Part shown: piece after piece, positions 1-58,150 of the stretch
Numbering within the stretch: the stretch's first letter is position 1
Layout: each line of letters opens with the position of its first letter
Assembly: GCA_965285935.1 (NCBI GenBank)
Contig: OZ260661.1
Coordinates: 112,096,001 to 112,160,000 of the forward strand
Direction of reading: 5' to 3'
DNA length: 64,000 nucleotides
Source of the DNA: Ophelia neglecta
Taxonomy: Eukaryota
Notes under the pieces: generated by a model
Told to the model about the DNA's origin: nothing
What the model saw: the letters and a program-made list of their open reading frames with translations, nothing else
Databases searched by the model: none
Position numbers and translations under genes: made by a program

Positions 1-1301
1 GGGCATACGCGGCTGTGAGCAAAGTCTTTCGCATTACCCAGATACCCAGGTGTTCTTCTCGGACGGAAGTTACATGATGGGCGTCCGTGGTAATACTTGG
101 TGAGAATACCGATGCTTTTGAAAAGCTAACGGGTTCCAGGGAATTATCCCACTTGATCTAAACCCAGATACAATATTGGTTTCCTTAAAGGCTGTCTGGT
201 AGGCCTCATGGAACAACTTGGGCCATGTCTTTCTGTTTAATGTATGGGTAACATCCTGTTGCAAGTATATTCGGTACAGATTCTATTGTATGCACCCTTG
301 AGTGTACCGAAAACTGCTAAATCCAAAGGTTGCAATGCGTGTGTGGTGTGAGGGGGAAGGCAAAAAAATAGTATGTCGTTTTTTAATGCCATCTCGATCA
401 AACCTAAAGTTTCGTGAGAATGATGGCCGTCCAGAATGATCATTTGCGGACGTTTCGGACCACAATTTTTCAGGAACAGTTGCTGAAACCACATCGTCCC
501 AAGGACTTCATCGGTCCACGCTTTTTCTGCGCAAGTCCACAAAGCACCTTTTGGGCCGTCTTGGGTTGACCAACTATAAAGCACTTTTGGAGATTTCCCC
601 CTGACGATGACAAGTGGTGGAAGTGCTTATCCCATACCATTGGCGATGCCTATGATGGTCAGCGATTCTTTTGAGTTTGACACTCTTCCCGGCACAGCTC
701 GTGCCCCTTTTCGAGCCACTACCTTACTAGGGGAGTGCTCCATTGTAGAACTAATTTCGTCCATGTTCCAGATTTGTTGGGGACTGGCGTTCAACCCTGT
801 GGAGTCAAGCAGTTCTTTTAGTGCAACAAAGTAGTCTCCGACCACCGTAGGGTTAAGTCCTCGCGCCCTGACGCTTGACAGACCCTCTGGTTTTCGCAGG
901 GTTATGGATGGATTTCTAGCAAGTAAACCCCTATACCACGCCTCGCCTGCTTTGGTTTGAAATGGTGTCGGTTTTTGAGGCGTGCTAAGACTTCTAGCTA
1001 TACGTCCGACTCTTGTTAGTAGCTGTGATTTGGTAAGAGCCATGCCCTGCTCAGCTGCTGACAGTACTTGGGTCGTTAACATATTTTCTTCATCAGGCGT
1101 GAATACAGGAGGACGCCCGGCTTTTCGCCCATATTTACATTTTCCCGATAATTTGTCCCCGATGGTACTTCGGGGAATGCCAAATCTTTCAGATGCCTCT
1201 CTCTGAGAATAAACCCCAGACCTGACGGCTTCTAAACCGTTTTTAAGCGCCGAGTCATCATATCGAATGTATATATCTTTTTTTCTGTTTTTCTTGGTCA
1301 T
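1..1301 (-). mobile_element. pogo/Tigger-type DDE transposase pseudogene (HTH_psq + CENP-B HTH + DDE_1), runs off the window edge
   Basis: ORF 627-1301 has 'SQREASERFGIPRSTIGDKL', 'GRPPVFTPDEE' and 'WNMDE'. After an in-frame TAA at 627-629 the same frame continues 'ALPPLVIVRGK...ILDGHHSH...LPPHTTHALQPLD'. A frameshift near 265 leads into 'NIVSGFRSSGIIPWNP', with another near 120. TIRs not located. Confidence 0.9.
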
Positions 1302-2453
1302 CGTCGCTGAATCTGCAAAAAGGAATCATTGAAAACGAGAAGCTGGTTTTATTTAATTGATCTTTTTTATAAATCTGACTTAAATACAGTATCCCCCCCC
1401 CCTCTATGCCCGAATAGATAGTTTCTTTGACGTTATTGCACTTACTTTAATATGGCATAAAATCAAAACGAACGGGCCTTGTTAAGGTAAAAACCATTTA
1501 ATGCAAAACGGGAACCATTCATTAGCTTTGTGTGTTGTAACTTTTGGAATAGACTTCTTATCAAATGAGAAAGACAGCAGCTTGACTGGAACCCTCCCCC
1601 AATCACCCCCCTACCTGTTACATATGGCGGGCCCCAGTGCAGTAAATAATACATTCTTTTTTACAGAAATATACAATCTCCGTTGAGCAAGCAGTTGTGC
1701 ATTGAATAAGTGTAGAATAATCTAGCAAACAGATTATTTTACTGCTTTATTAATAATTAGACACTTGCTGGATTACAATATCTTTTCTGAAAATTGACCA
1801 TCTAGCTTAGGCCTATGATGCAATTCAGCCTCTGTCTGGTATAAATAATCAAAAATGTTCACTGGATCATTTAATTACATTGAAACCCACCGTAATAATA
1901 AATCACGTCGTGACTGATCGCAAGAGGCCACTGTGTAAGTGTGCCCTTAGAGCAGATGTATGTGGCCGTAATTGCAACATATAGAAAAAAACTGCATATG
2001 GGGCAATTACGGCCACCCTTTTCAATTGAATACCAACTAAGAATGCGTTTTATTTGAATCATTTGAGTTAGTTTCAGGTTCTAGGTTACATACTAGTATC
2101 ATTTAATGACATTAAAATATATAAAAAAAAGTGTTAATTGTTCCAATGTTACCTTTATGAAACGACCCCTGGTACACCGCTGCATCCACTGGTAAAGTTT
2201 CGAATGTAGCTTAAAATGGCGGGGATTGTATCCGACCAAACCTGTATTGGTTCTGTAGCCTTGCCCTTGCACGGGACCATGCCATAATTGCAGTAAAAAT
2301 AAGCTGTACTTTGAATAGATAAATAAAAGAAAAGCTATCGTAAGTTACTGTAGTCTTAGCCATGTTATTTAATGAAAGGATGAATGGCAGAATGTGTGAT
2401 CTGGCCTGTCTTACACCTAGGGAACTAAAAGGCTACAATGGCTTTGAGTTATA

Positions 2454-2877
2454 TGTAACAACCGGTGGTCTCAGCGGGGTTTGAACTCACTACCCTTGGT
2501 TCTCCAGCCAACAACTCTACCAAGTTTGCCAAAGGGGTAACCCCTCTAGCCAAGCTAGTAGGAGTGTTGTGATCATGCACCAGTGGCCATGACCTGCTCA
2601 TACATCTCTGTTACATTCTCCCCCCTGCTGAGAACCACGTCCCCGTGGTGGTATGGCCACAGGACGGCTGTTGGGTTCGAGACTCTCGGTGAGACAGTCC
2701 CCTACTAGGCTCCATTGTAACAACCGGTGGTCTCAGCGGGGTTTGAACTCACTACCCTTGGTTCTCCAGCCAACAACTCTACCAAGTTTGCCAAAGGCGT
2801 AACCCCTCTAGCCAAGCTAGTAGGAGTGTTGTGATCATGCACCAGTGGCCATGACCTGCTCATACATCTCTGTTACA
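2454..2877 (-). mobile_element. TRIM (non-autonomous LTR retrotransposon) with tRNA-like sequence in its LTRs, Helenus-type
   Basis: Two 162-bp TGTAACA...TGTTACA LTRs (2454-2615 and 2716-2877) differ at 1 position and flank a 100-bp internal region. TATA TSD at 2450-2453 and 2878-2881. On the minus strand a TGG-starting PBS lies 1 nt after the 5' LTR, and PPT AGGGGGGAGAA precedes the 3' LTR. Each LTR has an A box (TGGCAAACTTGG) and a B box (GAGTTCAAACC). Confidence 0.92.
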
Positions 2878-4331
2878 TATAGACCTATAGGCTTCTCTGC
2901 TCATACTTGGGCTAGGCTGCGGCTGCTTCGTACAGACTTGTCATTGCACGTTGCATATGTCCTGGTTCGTCACCATAAAAGCTTGAATGGTTTAACTAAC
3001 CGCCATAGCGGTTCTTTTCTCGTTTGTATGGTCCACAACTTGAAAATCGACAGCTTTATTTGTAATTGTCATATCCATATTTTTTTATTCCTTTTTTTAT
3101 CGTCACTCCAAAGTGAGCATCTTGAAAACGGACTTTACATATGATCATCATGACGTTCTTTTACGATATACCATTAGCATATATTCGCCGCATCTGTGTT
3201 TAACTTGCATTTGACTTAATAACAGTATATTAGTCATTTGAGGCCCCTCTTTCCATCGCCATTGTTCTGATTTCCATTTTTTGTCGTTTTTAACTGTTGA
3301 TTAACTTAGTAGGAGACTTGTCGTAATAAAAACAAAGGAAGAAACATCCAACAGAAAGCATATTTTTTTTAGAAGTTTCTTAAAAGACATTATAGAAAAA
3401 AATTGCAATCAACATTGCAAGATACAAAATTCCAAATAAGTACTTATAAACCTCTAAACTTTACCTGTATTAGAAACAAAAACCTTTTCTATAAGGAGAA
3501 CATGTAAATAATTTATCTTTTTGTCGGCAATTTTTTCAGATTGAAAAATCTATGCCAGTCGGTGTCGTAGTTTATATTCAACAGAATTTGTAACTTTTTC
3601 TAGATTGCTCCTTTTTCCATGGCTTAAAAGTCCAGGGTGAAAAAGAAGGGTATTGTGGTAAATCTGATATATTGTCTGAATACCGATTTCATTATAGAGC
3701 TACATCGTAAGGTCAGAATTGAAAGTTTATTTCAGATAACTAGAATTATGACTCTGCAAATGTGAAAATCAGCGCCACAACCGTCCACGTACAGTGACTT
3801 TACAAACACATTACCCCAAATAGAGTGTGGTGTGTAACCTCATTTAACAGAAATGTGAAAGGATGGTGTGTTAGCGTTGACTAGGCCTCTAACCTCCCAA
3901 CTGATCATTACCAAGCATAGGGTAGCATAGATGCCGTAAATGAAACTCGTTATAAAAGTTGAAATCGTGAAATTCCTTCACACAACTTTCCGCGGACAAT
4001 GATATTGCTTCTCTTTTATGAAAATCAATAGTCATGTGATAAAGTCTTTAATCTTCACTAATGGTTGTGACAGCACTGGAAGCTTCTACAAGCCAAAATC
4101 GCAATCGCTGCCATCATTTCTCGACTCGAAAAGCTCGAAAAAATGCATAAAATTAACAATTCAAGGAACAAGTGGAGATACTTACCTCTAAAACAAAAAT
4201 TGAAGCTTAGAAATTAACTGAACCCACAAGTATATTATAATATTAAAAATAAAAATTCTCCCTAATATATATGTTACGCCTAATTCCTACTTGACTTCAG
4301 CTCGGGGTCTTTATGTTTAGGAGAATTGACG

Positions 4332-4490
4332 GAGAGCGGTAGATTTGGAGTTCGACCTGCACGGATCTATCGCTCCGAGTCAATTGACCGACTTAAAATA
4401 TTTGCATGGTCATATAGTGTGGCTTGAGACAATGAGCAGTAGATTCGAGACAATGAGCAGTAGATTCGTGATTTCTAATCTACTGCTCTC
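4332..4490. repeat. Small imperfect inverted-repeat element (possible MITE) containing a 21-bp tandem duplication
   Basis: gagagcggtagatttgga at 4332 versus ttctaatctactgctctc ending at 4490; gagacaatgagcagtagattc x2 inside. No clear TSD. Confidence 0.35.
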
Positions 4491-54299: not shown

Positions 54300-55199
54300 T
54301 TAAGCTAGCTGTGGAGCGGGGCGCTCTAGTGTGGGAGAGGCACGTGTGCGTCTGATGTAAGATTTGAAGGCATCGCTGTTCCACCGGCCGACAGATTTTA
54401 TTGTGGCTTCAGTCTCATTTTGTAGGGACATTTGCGTGGCCCTACCTATGCGGAACCCATGGGTGTTGTATTGAGCGGGATTTAGTCCAGACATTGACAT
54501 ACATTGTTTTAGGAAAGTGGCGAAGGTGTTTCTCGTTATGGGCACTTTTTGTTGGTTTATAAACAGGGCACCGTCTTGTTGGCCTTTTTTGAGGAGGTAG
54601 TTACGAAGTGCATTATACGGGCAGTATAGCTTTTCGGTTCTGGCTTGTAACAAAACTTTTGCTGTGCGATTCCTTGAGTGTTTAAAAGACTGAAAAGTTA
54701 TTAGGAATTCTTGGTTACTTTGCTGAACCTGGTTAAATTGTAACATGTGTTGGGGAGTTGGGGTCAAGACATCTTCGCAAGCTCTCATGCAGGCGTAATA
54801 CATTATTAGGAAAAGTGCTTTATACATGGTTCTATAATAAGGTGATATTGTGCAGAAAGGGATGGAATCAATCAGTCTTTCCAATATTGACTTTGTGATT
54901 GGGAGCTGATGGTTATCATAGTCACACTTTTCCAGAGAGCTGATTCCGTCTATTGCTTTTCGGACAATTGCACTATCTGTGGGGTCTGGCAACTTCTTAA
55001 TGGTGTGAACGAACGAGATAGCTGACATGTATGTTCGTATAGTTGACTGACGAAGGCCCTGCTGAAAGAGGTGGGTAACAAATAAAGCTACAGTATATTC
55101 GGACACAGGGAGGGTGAGTAGCTGTCGTAATTCGTGGGTAATGAAAGAAAGGAGGGTTTTCCATTGCCTATTGTAGATACGACTTGTGCTTGTAGCCAT
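54300..55199 (-). CDS. Tyrosine recombinase (phage-integrase family) of the retrotransposon
   Basis: STIRTYMSAISFVH N-terminal domain; catalytic residues in MRACE (R), HGFRIG (HxxR), GRW and SYIR (Y); uninterrupted 299 aa. Confidence 0.92.
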   Translation of the reverse strand: MATSTSRIYNRQWKTLLSFITHELRQLLTLPVSEYTVALFVTHLFQQGLRQSTIRTYMSAISFVHTIKKLPDPTDSAIVRKAIDGISSLEKCDYDNHQLPITKSILERLIDSIPFCTISPYYRTMYKALFLIMYYACMRACEDVLTPTPQHMLQFNQVQQSNQEFLITFQSFKHSRNRTAKVLLQARTEKLYCPYNALRNYLLKKGQQDGALFINQQKVPITRNTFATFLKQCMSMSGLNPAQYNTHGFRIGRATQMSLQNETEATIKSVGRWNSDAFKSYIRRTRASPTLERPAPQLA

Positions 55200-55219
55200 G
55201 GATGCGTTTAAAAGCGTAT

Positions 55220-56760
55220 TTAAACCAAGCTGTAGTTGCGAGGAAGGATATCCTCGGGGATCGACACGGGGGATAACTTCATCCTATATTGTAGAAGTGT
55301 GGCTTTGTCCGCCTGGAATCGAGAAATTTTGTCGCATAAAACATTGTCTATACCTGGTATATGTACAGGGTTCAAAGTTATGTTATTTAAGAGGAGGGTG
55401 AGAACGAGTGGGCGCAGTATGGCCATGATACGTGGGCTTTTTGAGCTTTGCTTTTTAAGCACTTCGACTACGGCTTGATTGTCACAGTGGAATGTTATGT
55501 GCGAGTGACTTAGTTGATCAGCAAATGTCATAATGATGGCAAGTATGGGATAAATTTCCAAGACCGCTATGTTAAGTGTTTGCCAGGAGGTGGGCCATTG
55601 TCAATGTATCCAATTGTTTTTGTAGGTTGCTCCAAAGCCTAATTTGGAAGAATCAGAAAAGAGATGTATCGTGGTTGAATCTAAGTTGGAGGGCTTTGTT
55701 ATAAAGGACTTTCCATTGTAGTTTTGTAGGAAACTGTTCCAAGTTTGAAGGTCTTGTTTTGCCCCTCGGCTGAGGCGAAGAAAGTAAAATGGTTTCGAAA
55801 GGCCAATGGTGAGATCGTGCAATCGCCTTAAAAAGGGTTTTCCTGAGGTGACTATGCAAGTTGAAAATTGCAATTTGCCTATCAATGATTTGAGCTCTCT
55901 CAGTGTTAATTTATTGCGTGCCAATGTATCTTCTATGTCTTGTGTATATCTTGCTAGTTTATCTGGTGGAAGCGAAGCAGTCATGTTTATTGAGTCCAGG
56001 TGTATTCCCATGAATACTATTGCAGTGGAGGGTCCTAGTGTTTTGTGGGGGGCAATGGGGACCCCAATCTCGTTACATAATTCTAGGAATATGTTCAGGT
56101 ATTCATGGCATGTCGAGAGTCAGGGGGACACGAAAAAAATTCAATTCAAAAATTTTACAAGAGGAAGCACAACCCATTGGCAGACATTTTTCATAATAGT
56201 ACTCTCCCTTAAATTGGAACCCCATAAGGTGATATTGTTTAGGGTTTATAGGTATGAGCCGAAAAGCGTCTGCAATGTCACTTTTTGCCATGAATGCCCC
56301 CGGTGAACACTGTTGAATGAGGGATATTGCATCTTTAATACTTTCATACTGAACCGTTGAAAAATCTCTAGGTATGTTGGTATTGACCGAGGTTTTGTCA
56401 TATGGGAAAGACAAATTGTGCAGGAGCCTAAATGTGCTTGGAGATTGTTTTTCTCTAAGCGCTAATGGGGAACATTTGAAATTAGGGAAGGGTGCAATTT
56501 TGAAAGGGCCAGAGATTCTGCCAAGGGCTATCTCTTGTTCTAGTTTTTCCTGTACTATTTCAGGGTTTTTTTAATACAGATTGAGAGTTTTTGAATGTAA
56601 TGGAGTTTCAGGGCCAGAAAATTAATATCAAATCCATATTTGAAACCATGCATAAGGTATTTTTCATGTTCATAATTAATTAGATATTTGGTCAGGGCGT
56701 TTATTTGTACCGGGGTTGGGAGATTTAAGTGGTCTCGATTTGGGGGCGATTTGAGGCTGC
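55220..56760 (-). pseudogene. Reverse transcriptase-RNase H (DIRS-type), disrupted
   Basis: PTPVQINAL...GFKYGF; GRISGPF...FRLLHNLS...MAKSDIADAFRLIP...LPMGCASSCKIFE; RNase H motifs LFSDSS, EIYPI, FHCDNQAVV, DKISR. Frameshifts, a TGA at 55601-55603, and no YxDD region. Confidence 0.9.
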
Positions 56761-57959
56761 TGAGGGCGGGTGTGTCCGAAAGTGCTACATTGAGAGTACA
56801 TGGGATGGCGTTTTGAGCACCTAGGACATTCGTGCTTGTAGGCACACGGGTTATTGTGGCACCGTACGCCCCTTTGGTGGAAGGTGAAACAGTATCCAGA
56901 TGGGACTCTTTGATTCTCTTGGTAAGGCCGAAAAGAATTTGTTGGTCGAAAGGATTGTTGGAGGGGAAAATATGCGTCCAGCTGTAGATCTTTCTCGCAC
57001 AGTTGACCAAGAGTATGGCACTTCTGCGTGTTCTCTCTGAGAGCGGAACTCATGGTCATAAAATCGCCATTCGGCTCCGCGGCGCATCAATTGTTTAATG
57101 TGATGGCAGTATGTAAGGAGATCACTAAGGTGAGAGGAATATTTTTGTACATATATTGCCACATATATGTCCATTGCAGAGCTCCATTCATTTTCTGTGA
57201 GCTGCTTTTTCCTACGGGGGTTGAGGTTTAGTTGGGGGGTAGCACTAGGGTCAGAGAATTGCAGGGAGTAGGATCTGCGAGTTCAATGTATTTATGGGCC
57301 CAAATGTTTTGTTTTGTCTGCATATCCACGCATGCACCTAATGGGAGTCCGGATGATGTAGTTGGACGGTGGGTGTTGACAACTATGGGAACGTTAAGAA
57401 ACTCACCGTTAGCTGCCTGTTGGTTTTGATAGTTGTCAGCCAGCTGTGTTTGTTGGACGACAGCTGGCTGGGGCTCTTGTATGAAGTCTGTCTGTGATAC
57501 GGGAAGGTCTGCTGTCTGGTAATTGTCAGGTTGCGGAGTTTGCGGGGTAAAGGTGTCCTGCTGCTGATGGGTGTCTGGTTTTTGGTGGGTTTGAGTTAGC
57601 ACAGCTATCAGTGTCTCCATCTGCTTGTTAAGCAGTTGCTGGCCAGCGATGATACTTTGCTGCATCTGCGCCATGGTGTGTAGGGAAATGTCTGTTTGAT
57701 TTGCTGAAGTGCTCGGCTGAGGTTCGGTCTGTATTGTCATGGAAGGTGTGTCAAACGAGTCCACCAACCGTGCTGGCATGTTTCTCTTTCTTAGGGGCTG
57801 CTGTCTTTGGGTTGGAGGAGCGGGCTTTGATATTGGTTTGGTGCGGGTTCTTCTGAGGGGAGATTTTGTTGCCGAAGGCATCACGGATCTCCTTCGTGCC
57901 TTCAGCTTCATTGAGAGGGATCCGGAGGATCGGGAAGATTTTTCTGATACTTTAGGCAT
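56676..57959 (-). pseudogene. Gag-like ORF1 with C-terminal Cys/His zinc finger, frameshifted
   Basis: Low-complexity Q/P/T-rich N-terminus; 'KQNIWAHKYIEL'; 'WRFYDHEFR'; 'YCFTFHQRGVRCHNNPCAYKHECPRCSKRHP', spread over three frames. Confidence 0.8.
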
Positions 57960-58150
57960 GGCTGTAAAAGAAATGAGCATTAGAAAATAGAACAAAGGTA
58001 AATTGCAGCAAAGCTGCAATGACTGAAACATGTGGGATTAGTGTTTTACTTATGCATCGAGACACACTATGCTCTGAATCAGGTAACGTGTGATACACAA
58101 GGTTGTGCTAGATAATAAAGGGGATAATATTAAGGTATGTATGGGAGAAT

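Follow-up and report, generated by a model that had tools for sequence, protein, structure and literature searches.

Fused copies likely name the Gypsy helpers on which a 424-bp non-coding TRIM rides, even though the TRIM and these Gypsy elements carry sites for different tRNA primers. The TRIM occupies positions 2454-2877 on the minus strand of the window, the 64,000-nucleotide stretch of Ophelia neglecta DNA analysed here. Roughly one in seven of the loci that we examined is a fused TRIM-Gypsy element, mostly bounded by a single target site duplication (TSD), which names candidate helpers directly, and the composites show several partner families at once together with the primer mismatch. 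According to the published accounts consulted, helpers of TRIMs with Pol III promoters have so far been assigned, for Helenus, through primer sites that match, and are unknown for Cassandra. The element type has already been published, and the structure by itself is unsurprising; what is added here are fused copies naming helpers that use a different primer. Such a young family makes it possible to test how specific the helpers are, whether RNAs are co-packaged and what the tRNA module does.

Anatomy of the element

The two LTRs, each 162 bp long, differ by a single mismatch at LTR position 80 and enclose a 100-bp non-coding interior. The primer binding site (PBS) follows the LTR at 2877-2716, and the polypurine tract (PPT) immediately precedes the LTR at 2615-2454, which makes the minus strand the sense strand. 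Length, LTR pair, interior, PBS, PPT and TATA TSD all agree with a preliminary description of this DNA. The sense strand of the TRIM contains no run of four T residues, the first such run lying 24 bases downstream in the flank, and the interior folds no better than shuffled sequences (z 0.56). An identity as a SINE2 was considered and rejected, given the fixed TG..CA ends, the missing tail and the fixed 4-bp TSD.

Table 1. Features of the TRIM in the window and TRIM-Gypsy composites elsewhere in the genome
Feature	Location	Strand	Basis or remarks
TSD TATA	2450..2453		flank repeat
3' LTR, 162 bp	2454..2615	-	LTR pair comparison
B box, 3' LTR	2478-2486	-	
A box, 3' LTR	2520-2531	-	
PPT, 11 purines	2616..2626	-	
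9-nt stretch complementary to T arm of PBS-matched tRNA-Lys	2673..2681	-	possible extended primer contact
Predicted PBS, 19 nt complementary to mature 3' end of host intron-containing tRNA-Lys(TTT)	2696..2714	-	
5' LTR, 162 bp, TGTAACA...TGTTACA	2716..2877	-	LTR pair comparison
Degenerate tRNA-like module, 5' LTR	2728..2800	-	alignment to host tRNA; predicted Pol III start near 2800
B box, 5' LTR	2740..2748	-	LTR positions 130-138
A box, 5' LTR	2782..2793	-	LTR positions 85-96
U3 hairpin, immediately upstream of tRNA-like module	2802..2827	-	second copy 2540-2565; fold z -1.69, equalled by 12/200 shuffles
TSD TATA	2878..2881		flank repeat; X3 contig joins 2449 to 2878
Composite, family A	C1:13.50		TSD TGTA; Gypsy end + TRIM end
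Composite, family A	C2:107.82		TSD TATG; Gypsy end + TRIM end
Composite, family A array	C2:108.19 and its duplicate		TSD ATAG; Gypsy end + TRIM end
Composite, family B	C5:59.69		TSD TTAG; Gypsy end + TRIM end
Composite, family B	C50		TSD TACC; Gypsy end + TRIM end
Composite, family D	C1:116.85		TSD TGTA; Gypsy end + TRIM end
Composite, family D	C5:33.30		TSD GTGC; Gypsy end + TRIM end
Composite, E-like LTR	C12:29.39		TSD ATAA; Gypsy end + TRIM end; far LTR end placed from the TSD itself
Composite, family A	C1:2.29		TSD CACA; TRIM ends both sides
Composite, gag-bearing partner	C5:110.87		TSD TTTG; TRIM ends both sides
Composite, family G	C2:87.87		no 4-bp TSD; 1.3-kb flank duplication
Composite, family A, older	C1:7.10 and its duplicate		no 4-bp TSD

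A tRNA-like module with a predicted Pol III promoter

An ungapped alignment of LTR positions 78-150 with a host tRNA-Thr(TGT) gene has 46 of 73 positions identical and a score of 67 compared to a maximum of 50 among 1000 shuffles, and the A and B boxes lie in sense orientation and are spaced as in a tRNA. When four tRNA types were compared, likeness to Thr stood at 71 vs 50 in the subfamily of the window, and one copy of a second subfamily gave 53 for Thr vs 55 for Phe. Among the same four types, the module matches Thr best, and the PBS matches Lys; the module does not pair with the PBS of its own element. ARAGORN called no tRNA on the LTR, a search of the LTR against Rfam gave neither tRNA nor any other family, with no 5S match up to E 10, and the tRNA-like part folds worse than 200 of 200 shuffles (z +2.25). 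Set against the usual, non-obligatory Helenus box letters (TRGCY, YGG and GGTTC), the element has TGGCA in place of TRGCY and retains YGG, and its B box reads AGTTC in the window's subfamily and GGTTC in the second.

The preliminary description had placed sense-oriented A and B boxes in each LTR and treated their conservation among copies as decisive. Both points are borne out, with the A pattern intact in 69 and the B pattern in 70 of 76 LTRs (one per locus, leaving out 16 motif rows, 3 duplicates and 6 census loci that lack a full LTR). The number of deviating rows per column averages 2.5 in the A box and 1.3 in the B box, compared with 9.9 between the boxes and 8.2 in U3 (76 LTRs; rank test p=0.005, the columns being non-independent and having subfamily history in common), and LTR positions 75-84 and 139-155 are conserved to the level of the A box. 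Columns with variants shared among copies make up 13 of 27 in the arm between the boxes vs 1 of 9 in the B box (p=0.052). TTTT is absent from all 46 interiors inspected. As far as sequence can tell, the box conservation fits selection on a promoter; use by Pol III is a prediction, and the SINE origin put forward in the preliminary description is likewise hypothetical.

Two fold-back copies (L177 at C1:73.62 Mb and L121 at C5:71.58 Mb) are centred on LTR position 77-78, where a short palindrome covers the point at which Pol III is predicted to start, and their sequence is compatible with snap-back at this palindrome or with an RNA 5' end. Similar palindromes are visible by eye in many Helenus LTRs among the published records (PMC10886601). 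At another locus (L091, C1:147.37 Mb), a minisatellite with a 19-bp unit derives from the U3 hairpin region of the LTR.

A small, young family

The TRIM belongs to a small multicopy family, with about 50 PBS-bearing loci in the genome. A DNA search returned at least 49 matches, with 40 of 319 candidates scored; exact PBS-junction patterns matched 44 and 18 times, and an exact U3 motif of the LTR matched 153 times (100 of these are listed, and the other 53 were covered where they fall within the census). The census comprises 53 PBS-bearing or full-length loci, reduced to 50 by dropping three segmental duplicates, and the LTR motif adds 48 further loci, or 37 after removal of 11 duplicates or co-duplicated copies. 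Further copies with 4-bp TSDs, on which the preliminary description had made its reading depend, do exist: such duplications abut the ends of the TRIM in 23 of the 50 census loci and, among the matches listed, in 18 of 32 full-length LTR-motif rows, alongside one 5-bp case. Their sequences have a weak Y-R-W-R bias. A target preference for TATA, which that description had proposed to check, is ruled out, as TATA accounts for 2 of 39 TSDs.

Among the 25 rows that have two LTRs, 7 pairs are identical and 6 carry one difference, and the nearest copy differs from that of the window at 2 of 424 bases. Contigs from three sequencing runs, all of a single sample, contain the stretch in question. One X3 contig omits the element exactly, its short side being 30 letters, which is a weak hint of a heterozygous insertion. 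The identical LTR pairs, along with this hint of an empty site, support the recent activity previously suggested; the family is young and probably still segregating. Other forms in the genome are tandem arrays, solo LTRs and fold-back copies. A diverged LTR of the TRIM is also found inside a larger repeat, of about 1 kb or more, in at least seven places (L230, L231, L240, L241, L243-L245).

Relationship to known TRIMs

Judged by its sequence, the element is a new family of the known Helenus kind. Helenus, the animal TRIMp3, was described in 2024 by Kojima (PMC10886601) and is defined, in the text available, by this very anatomy. The suggestion of a Helenus-like element of a likely new family thus stands as to novelty, and is corrected in that the element shares sequence with published animal Helenus. 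Like them, it is a TRIM of <1000 bp with two LTRs and no coding capacity; each LTR bears a sense tRNA-like module with A and B boxes, a PBS, a PPT and a 4-bp TSD are present, the tRNA part is non-functional, and tandem arrays and solo LTRs occur. A word search located the U3 9-mer CCTACTAGC at the same place in five published LTRs, four from oysters and one from a nemertean, and an anticodon-arm word, found by word search and compared by eye, is common to scallop Helenus-4_MiYe. LTR motifs are shared with Helenus-1_CGi, -2_CVi, -3_SaGl and -6_SaGl (oysters), -4_MiYe (scallop) and -1_LiLo (nemertean), which are the closest published records by eye rather than by computed alignment, and the U3 hairpin motif, again by eye, recurs in oyster and nemertean Helenus. 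Unlike in Helenus, the PBS here corresponds to an intron-containing tRNA-Lys(TTT), which has 0 matches in the supplement lists of PMC10886601, and the interior was not recognised by eye in the published records compared. The evidence on helpers differs as well: dependence on Gypsy, as in animal Helenus, is read here from genomic TSD-bounded composites, and the helper's primer differs from that of the TRIM, whereas Kojima links partners through a common PBS (PMC10886601). None of the words hairpin, palindrome and chimera appears in the main text of that paper. The mitochondrial cox1 of the host reads best under translation table 5 (AAA=Lys, AGA/AGG=Ser and ATA=Met at conserved sites), which points to a probable protostome invertebrate; the gene appears closer to annelid cox1 than to its counterparts in oysters, mussels and scallops, and a host group new to Helenus is possible. 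A protein search with an NCKX exon gave no placement of the host.

Similarities to other small elements are more partial. With Cassandra and Ajax, as described in the sections consulted of PMC7215508 and PMC10886601, the TRIM shares a Pol III promoter inside both LTRs (predicted here) and tandem arrays, but its promoter is of tRNA type and not 5S-derived (Rfam to E 10), and its TSD has 4 bp where Ajax has 5 bp (PMC10886601); the partners of Cassandra are termed unknown in PMC7215508. Complex LTR elements with one TSD have been read as co-packaged RNAs that integrated once (Sabot and Schulman 2007, PMC1950507), and our composites resemble them; in that account, however, closely related members of a single family are joined, whereas here a 0.4-kb TRIM is joined to Gypsy elements with unrelated LTRs. 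The biv-TRIM (Satovic 2019, PMC6934838) is likewise an animal TRIM with solo and tandem forms, but is set apart by its description, which gives neither a canonical PBS nor a partner. Chimeras between TRIM families (PMC13570524) and partners named by similarity (PMC4717578) are on record in the texts consulted, and a search of openly accessible literature, at the level of listings and passages, found no co-integrants of a TRIMp3 with a helper or autonomous element.

TRIM-Gypsy composites

As assembled, composites make up 12 of the roughly 87 independent loci that we examined; 10 of them have one 4-bp TSD, and in 8 of these 10 one end is Gypsy and the other TRIM (Table 1). We read those bounded by one TSD as single integrations, the criterion given in PMC1950507. 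Nested insertion does not account for the group with a Gypsy end and a TRIM end, because in these the TRIM lacks a separate TSD and is not followed by further Gypsy sequence. In the cleanest composite (L088, TSD TGTA), a Gypsy LTR is joined to the TRIM PBS, with the crossover inside a 14-base word that is common to both partners and spans the LTR ends and PBS starts of each; among the contigs over this junction, no listed piece bridges it. In six of the 12 composites the joint coincides with the PBS or with a copy of the primer tRNA, and the joint at C2:107.82 includes a tRNA-Thr copy reaching the anticodon. End-to-end joints with leftover dinucleotides occur at C1:116.85 and C2:87.87, and also in a TRIM-TRIM dimer.

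Template switching of plus-strand strong-stop DNA is an established retroviral mechanism, and the sequences of the PBS and primer joints fit such switches. The end-to-end joints could equally well stem from nuclear end-joining or from template switching, and under either origin it is most likely that a TRIM end was accepted by a Gypsy integrase. The helpers are thus indicated by physical hybrids and not by a matching PBS, and these hybrids support the mobilisation in trans by Gypsy that had been proposed from the window alone. A candidate long relative with the same LTR (L041/L043) was rejected, as it proved to be one old chimera of the TRIM and Gypsy family A within a LINE, duplicated later, with no TSD.

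Gypsy partners and the primer tRNA

Searching with PBS variants led to Gypsy family A, a young 8.7-kb element with ends TGTAACA..GGTTACA, 4-bp TSDs and LTR pairs that are 99.6-100% identical. Families A, B, D, F and G encode RT, RNase H and integrase domains, have LTRs that are nearly identical, and make 4-bp TSDs. Their mutual RT-RNase H identity is 62-86%, vs about 40% to an unrelated Gypsy; in the RT tree, from which C dropped out and to which E does not belong, the outgroup is long and the deep forks are left open. Wherever the PBS of a partner family is readable, it is of tRNA-Thr(TGT) type, a PBS junction with 56 matches, and has only 7 PBS bases in common with the TRIM. Beyond the termini, the TRIM and Gypsy LTRs share no sequence. 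The autonomous Gypsy anticipated earlier was therefore found with regard to its TGTAAC termini but not with regard to a PBS matching that of the TRIM, which is of Lys instead of Thr type. Reverse-transcribed tRNA-Thr(TGT) copies with CCA, extending to the anticodon loop, adjoin Gypsy LTR ends at L079 / L141 (C2:20.67 Mb) and C2:107817139, and whole Gypsy elements with common LTRs form head-to-tail arrays at G000:C2 108.19-108.23 and 108.59-108.62 Mb, C7:2.80 Mb and C2:122.1 Mb.

The tRNA end predicted from the TRIM PBS later turned up on C8, in a tandem array (62 pattern matches) whose gene is an intron-containing tRNA-Lys(TTT) ending in T (Rfam tRNA, 61 bits). Such an intron and discriminator are unusual for animals. 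The PBS matches this tRNA over 19 nt, vs 7 for tRNA-Thr, and its columns are nearly invariant across 46 interiors; the 9-mer complementary to the T arm is conserved no more highly than the rest of the interior. Exact searches for the Lys-type PBS, covering matches of at least 11 nt that do not directly follow CA, gave only TRIM copies, composites and chance-like matches, and thus no autonomous element. Among 26 additional matches, 25 are 11-13 nt long with neither an LTR nor a Gypsy match, and one is a TRIM. The array itself (G000:C8 ~12.58-12.74 Mb, L031-L040) has a unit of about 1.93 kb containing tRNA-Lys(TTT) and tRNA-Phe. By eye, many published Helenus interiors likewise contain a further word that could pair with the T arm of their primer tRNA, making a bipartite contact possible (PMC10886601, records consulted).

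Proposed mechanism and alternatives

We consider it probable that this copy of the TRIM inserted recently, that its family, a new one within Helenus (TRIMp3), is likely transcribed by Pol III and predicted to be primed by tRNA-Lys(UUU), and that a tRNA-Thr-primed Gypsy group likely mobilises it. Transcription would start near LTR position 78, driven by the A and B boxes of the 5' LTR, and would either continue through the 3' LTR to the T run of the flank, read-through into the flank being expected because the element has no four-T run, or stop at a TTT behind the U3 hairpin. The RNA may then enter particles of the Thr-primed Gypsy group and be primed by host tRNA-Lys(UUU). Reverse transcriptase would at times leave a TRIM template for a Gypsy one or the reverse, in most cases at the end of plus-strand strong-stop DNA at the PBS, and the Gypsy integrase would accept and integrate TRIM ends.

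The usual helper might instead be an element that escaped detection and has tRNA-Lys(UUU) as its primer; the composites would then be by-products in which unrelated cDNAs were joined by nuclear repair and integrated by the Gypsy integrase. The end-to-end joints with leftover dinucleotides suit this account, as does the matching of animal Helenus with same-primer Gypsy by Kojima (in the text available of PMC10886601), and a polymorphic helper may be absent from one assembly. However, half of the 12 joints lie at the PBS or at copied primer tRNA, where reverse transcriptase and both templates are needed, and the exact PBS searches, within the scope given above, yielded no such element; we judge this explanation improbable. 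Equally improbable in our estimate is that the tRNA-like module does not work as a promoter, that Pol II or read-through transcripts are copied, and that the module persists because it serves packaging or simply as a remnant. The imperfect A box, the conservation reaching past the boxes, and the position of TRIMs behind Gypsy LTR promoters in composites and tandem arrays lean towards it, and Kojima notes that Helenus promoters are without experimental validation (PMC10886601, text consulted). Against these stand the fixation of the B box in contrast to the intervening arm, which differs from one subfamily to the other, the lack of T4 on the sense strand, and the precedent of Cassandra as presented in that source.

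A local SINE duplication or an assembly artefact could be imagined from the tRNA-like head and from the poor assembly of repeats in general, but dozens of dispersed copies have TG..CA ends, a PBS, a PPT and distinct 4-bp TSDs, and the stretch is present in contigs from three runs, which leaves this explanation with next to no credibility. Mobilisation of a Pol III-transcribed TRIM by Thr-primed Gypsy, our preferred reading, can also be taken further: the TRIM might parasitise the whole Thr-primed Gypsy clade using a Lys(UUU) primer, of which the last seven bases are common, with the Thr look-alike start of its RNA serving as a packaging mimic of the primer. This extension is speculative and, in our view, rather unlikely to hold; if true, the tRNA module would be both promoter and packaging signal, and assignment of partners by PBS would be unreliable.

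Genomic neighborhood

A transposase remnant is found about 1.1 kb away from the TRIM, and the first detected NCKX-type exon follows after about 14 kb. The remnant (window 237-1325, minus strand) is a broken pogo/Tigger-like transposase with an HTH_psq domain, and the exons (17016-49271, plus strand) are those of a K-dependent Na/Ca exchanger (NCKX), with one 22-kb intron. Farther along (54300-58037, minus strand) is a broken DIRS/Ngaro-like retrotransposon with a tyrosine recombinase. A 21-bp inverted repeat with a 13-base gap at 1962-2016 is possibly a MITE remnant, and the high summed contig depth at 4329-4400 marks the start of another multicopy repeat.
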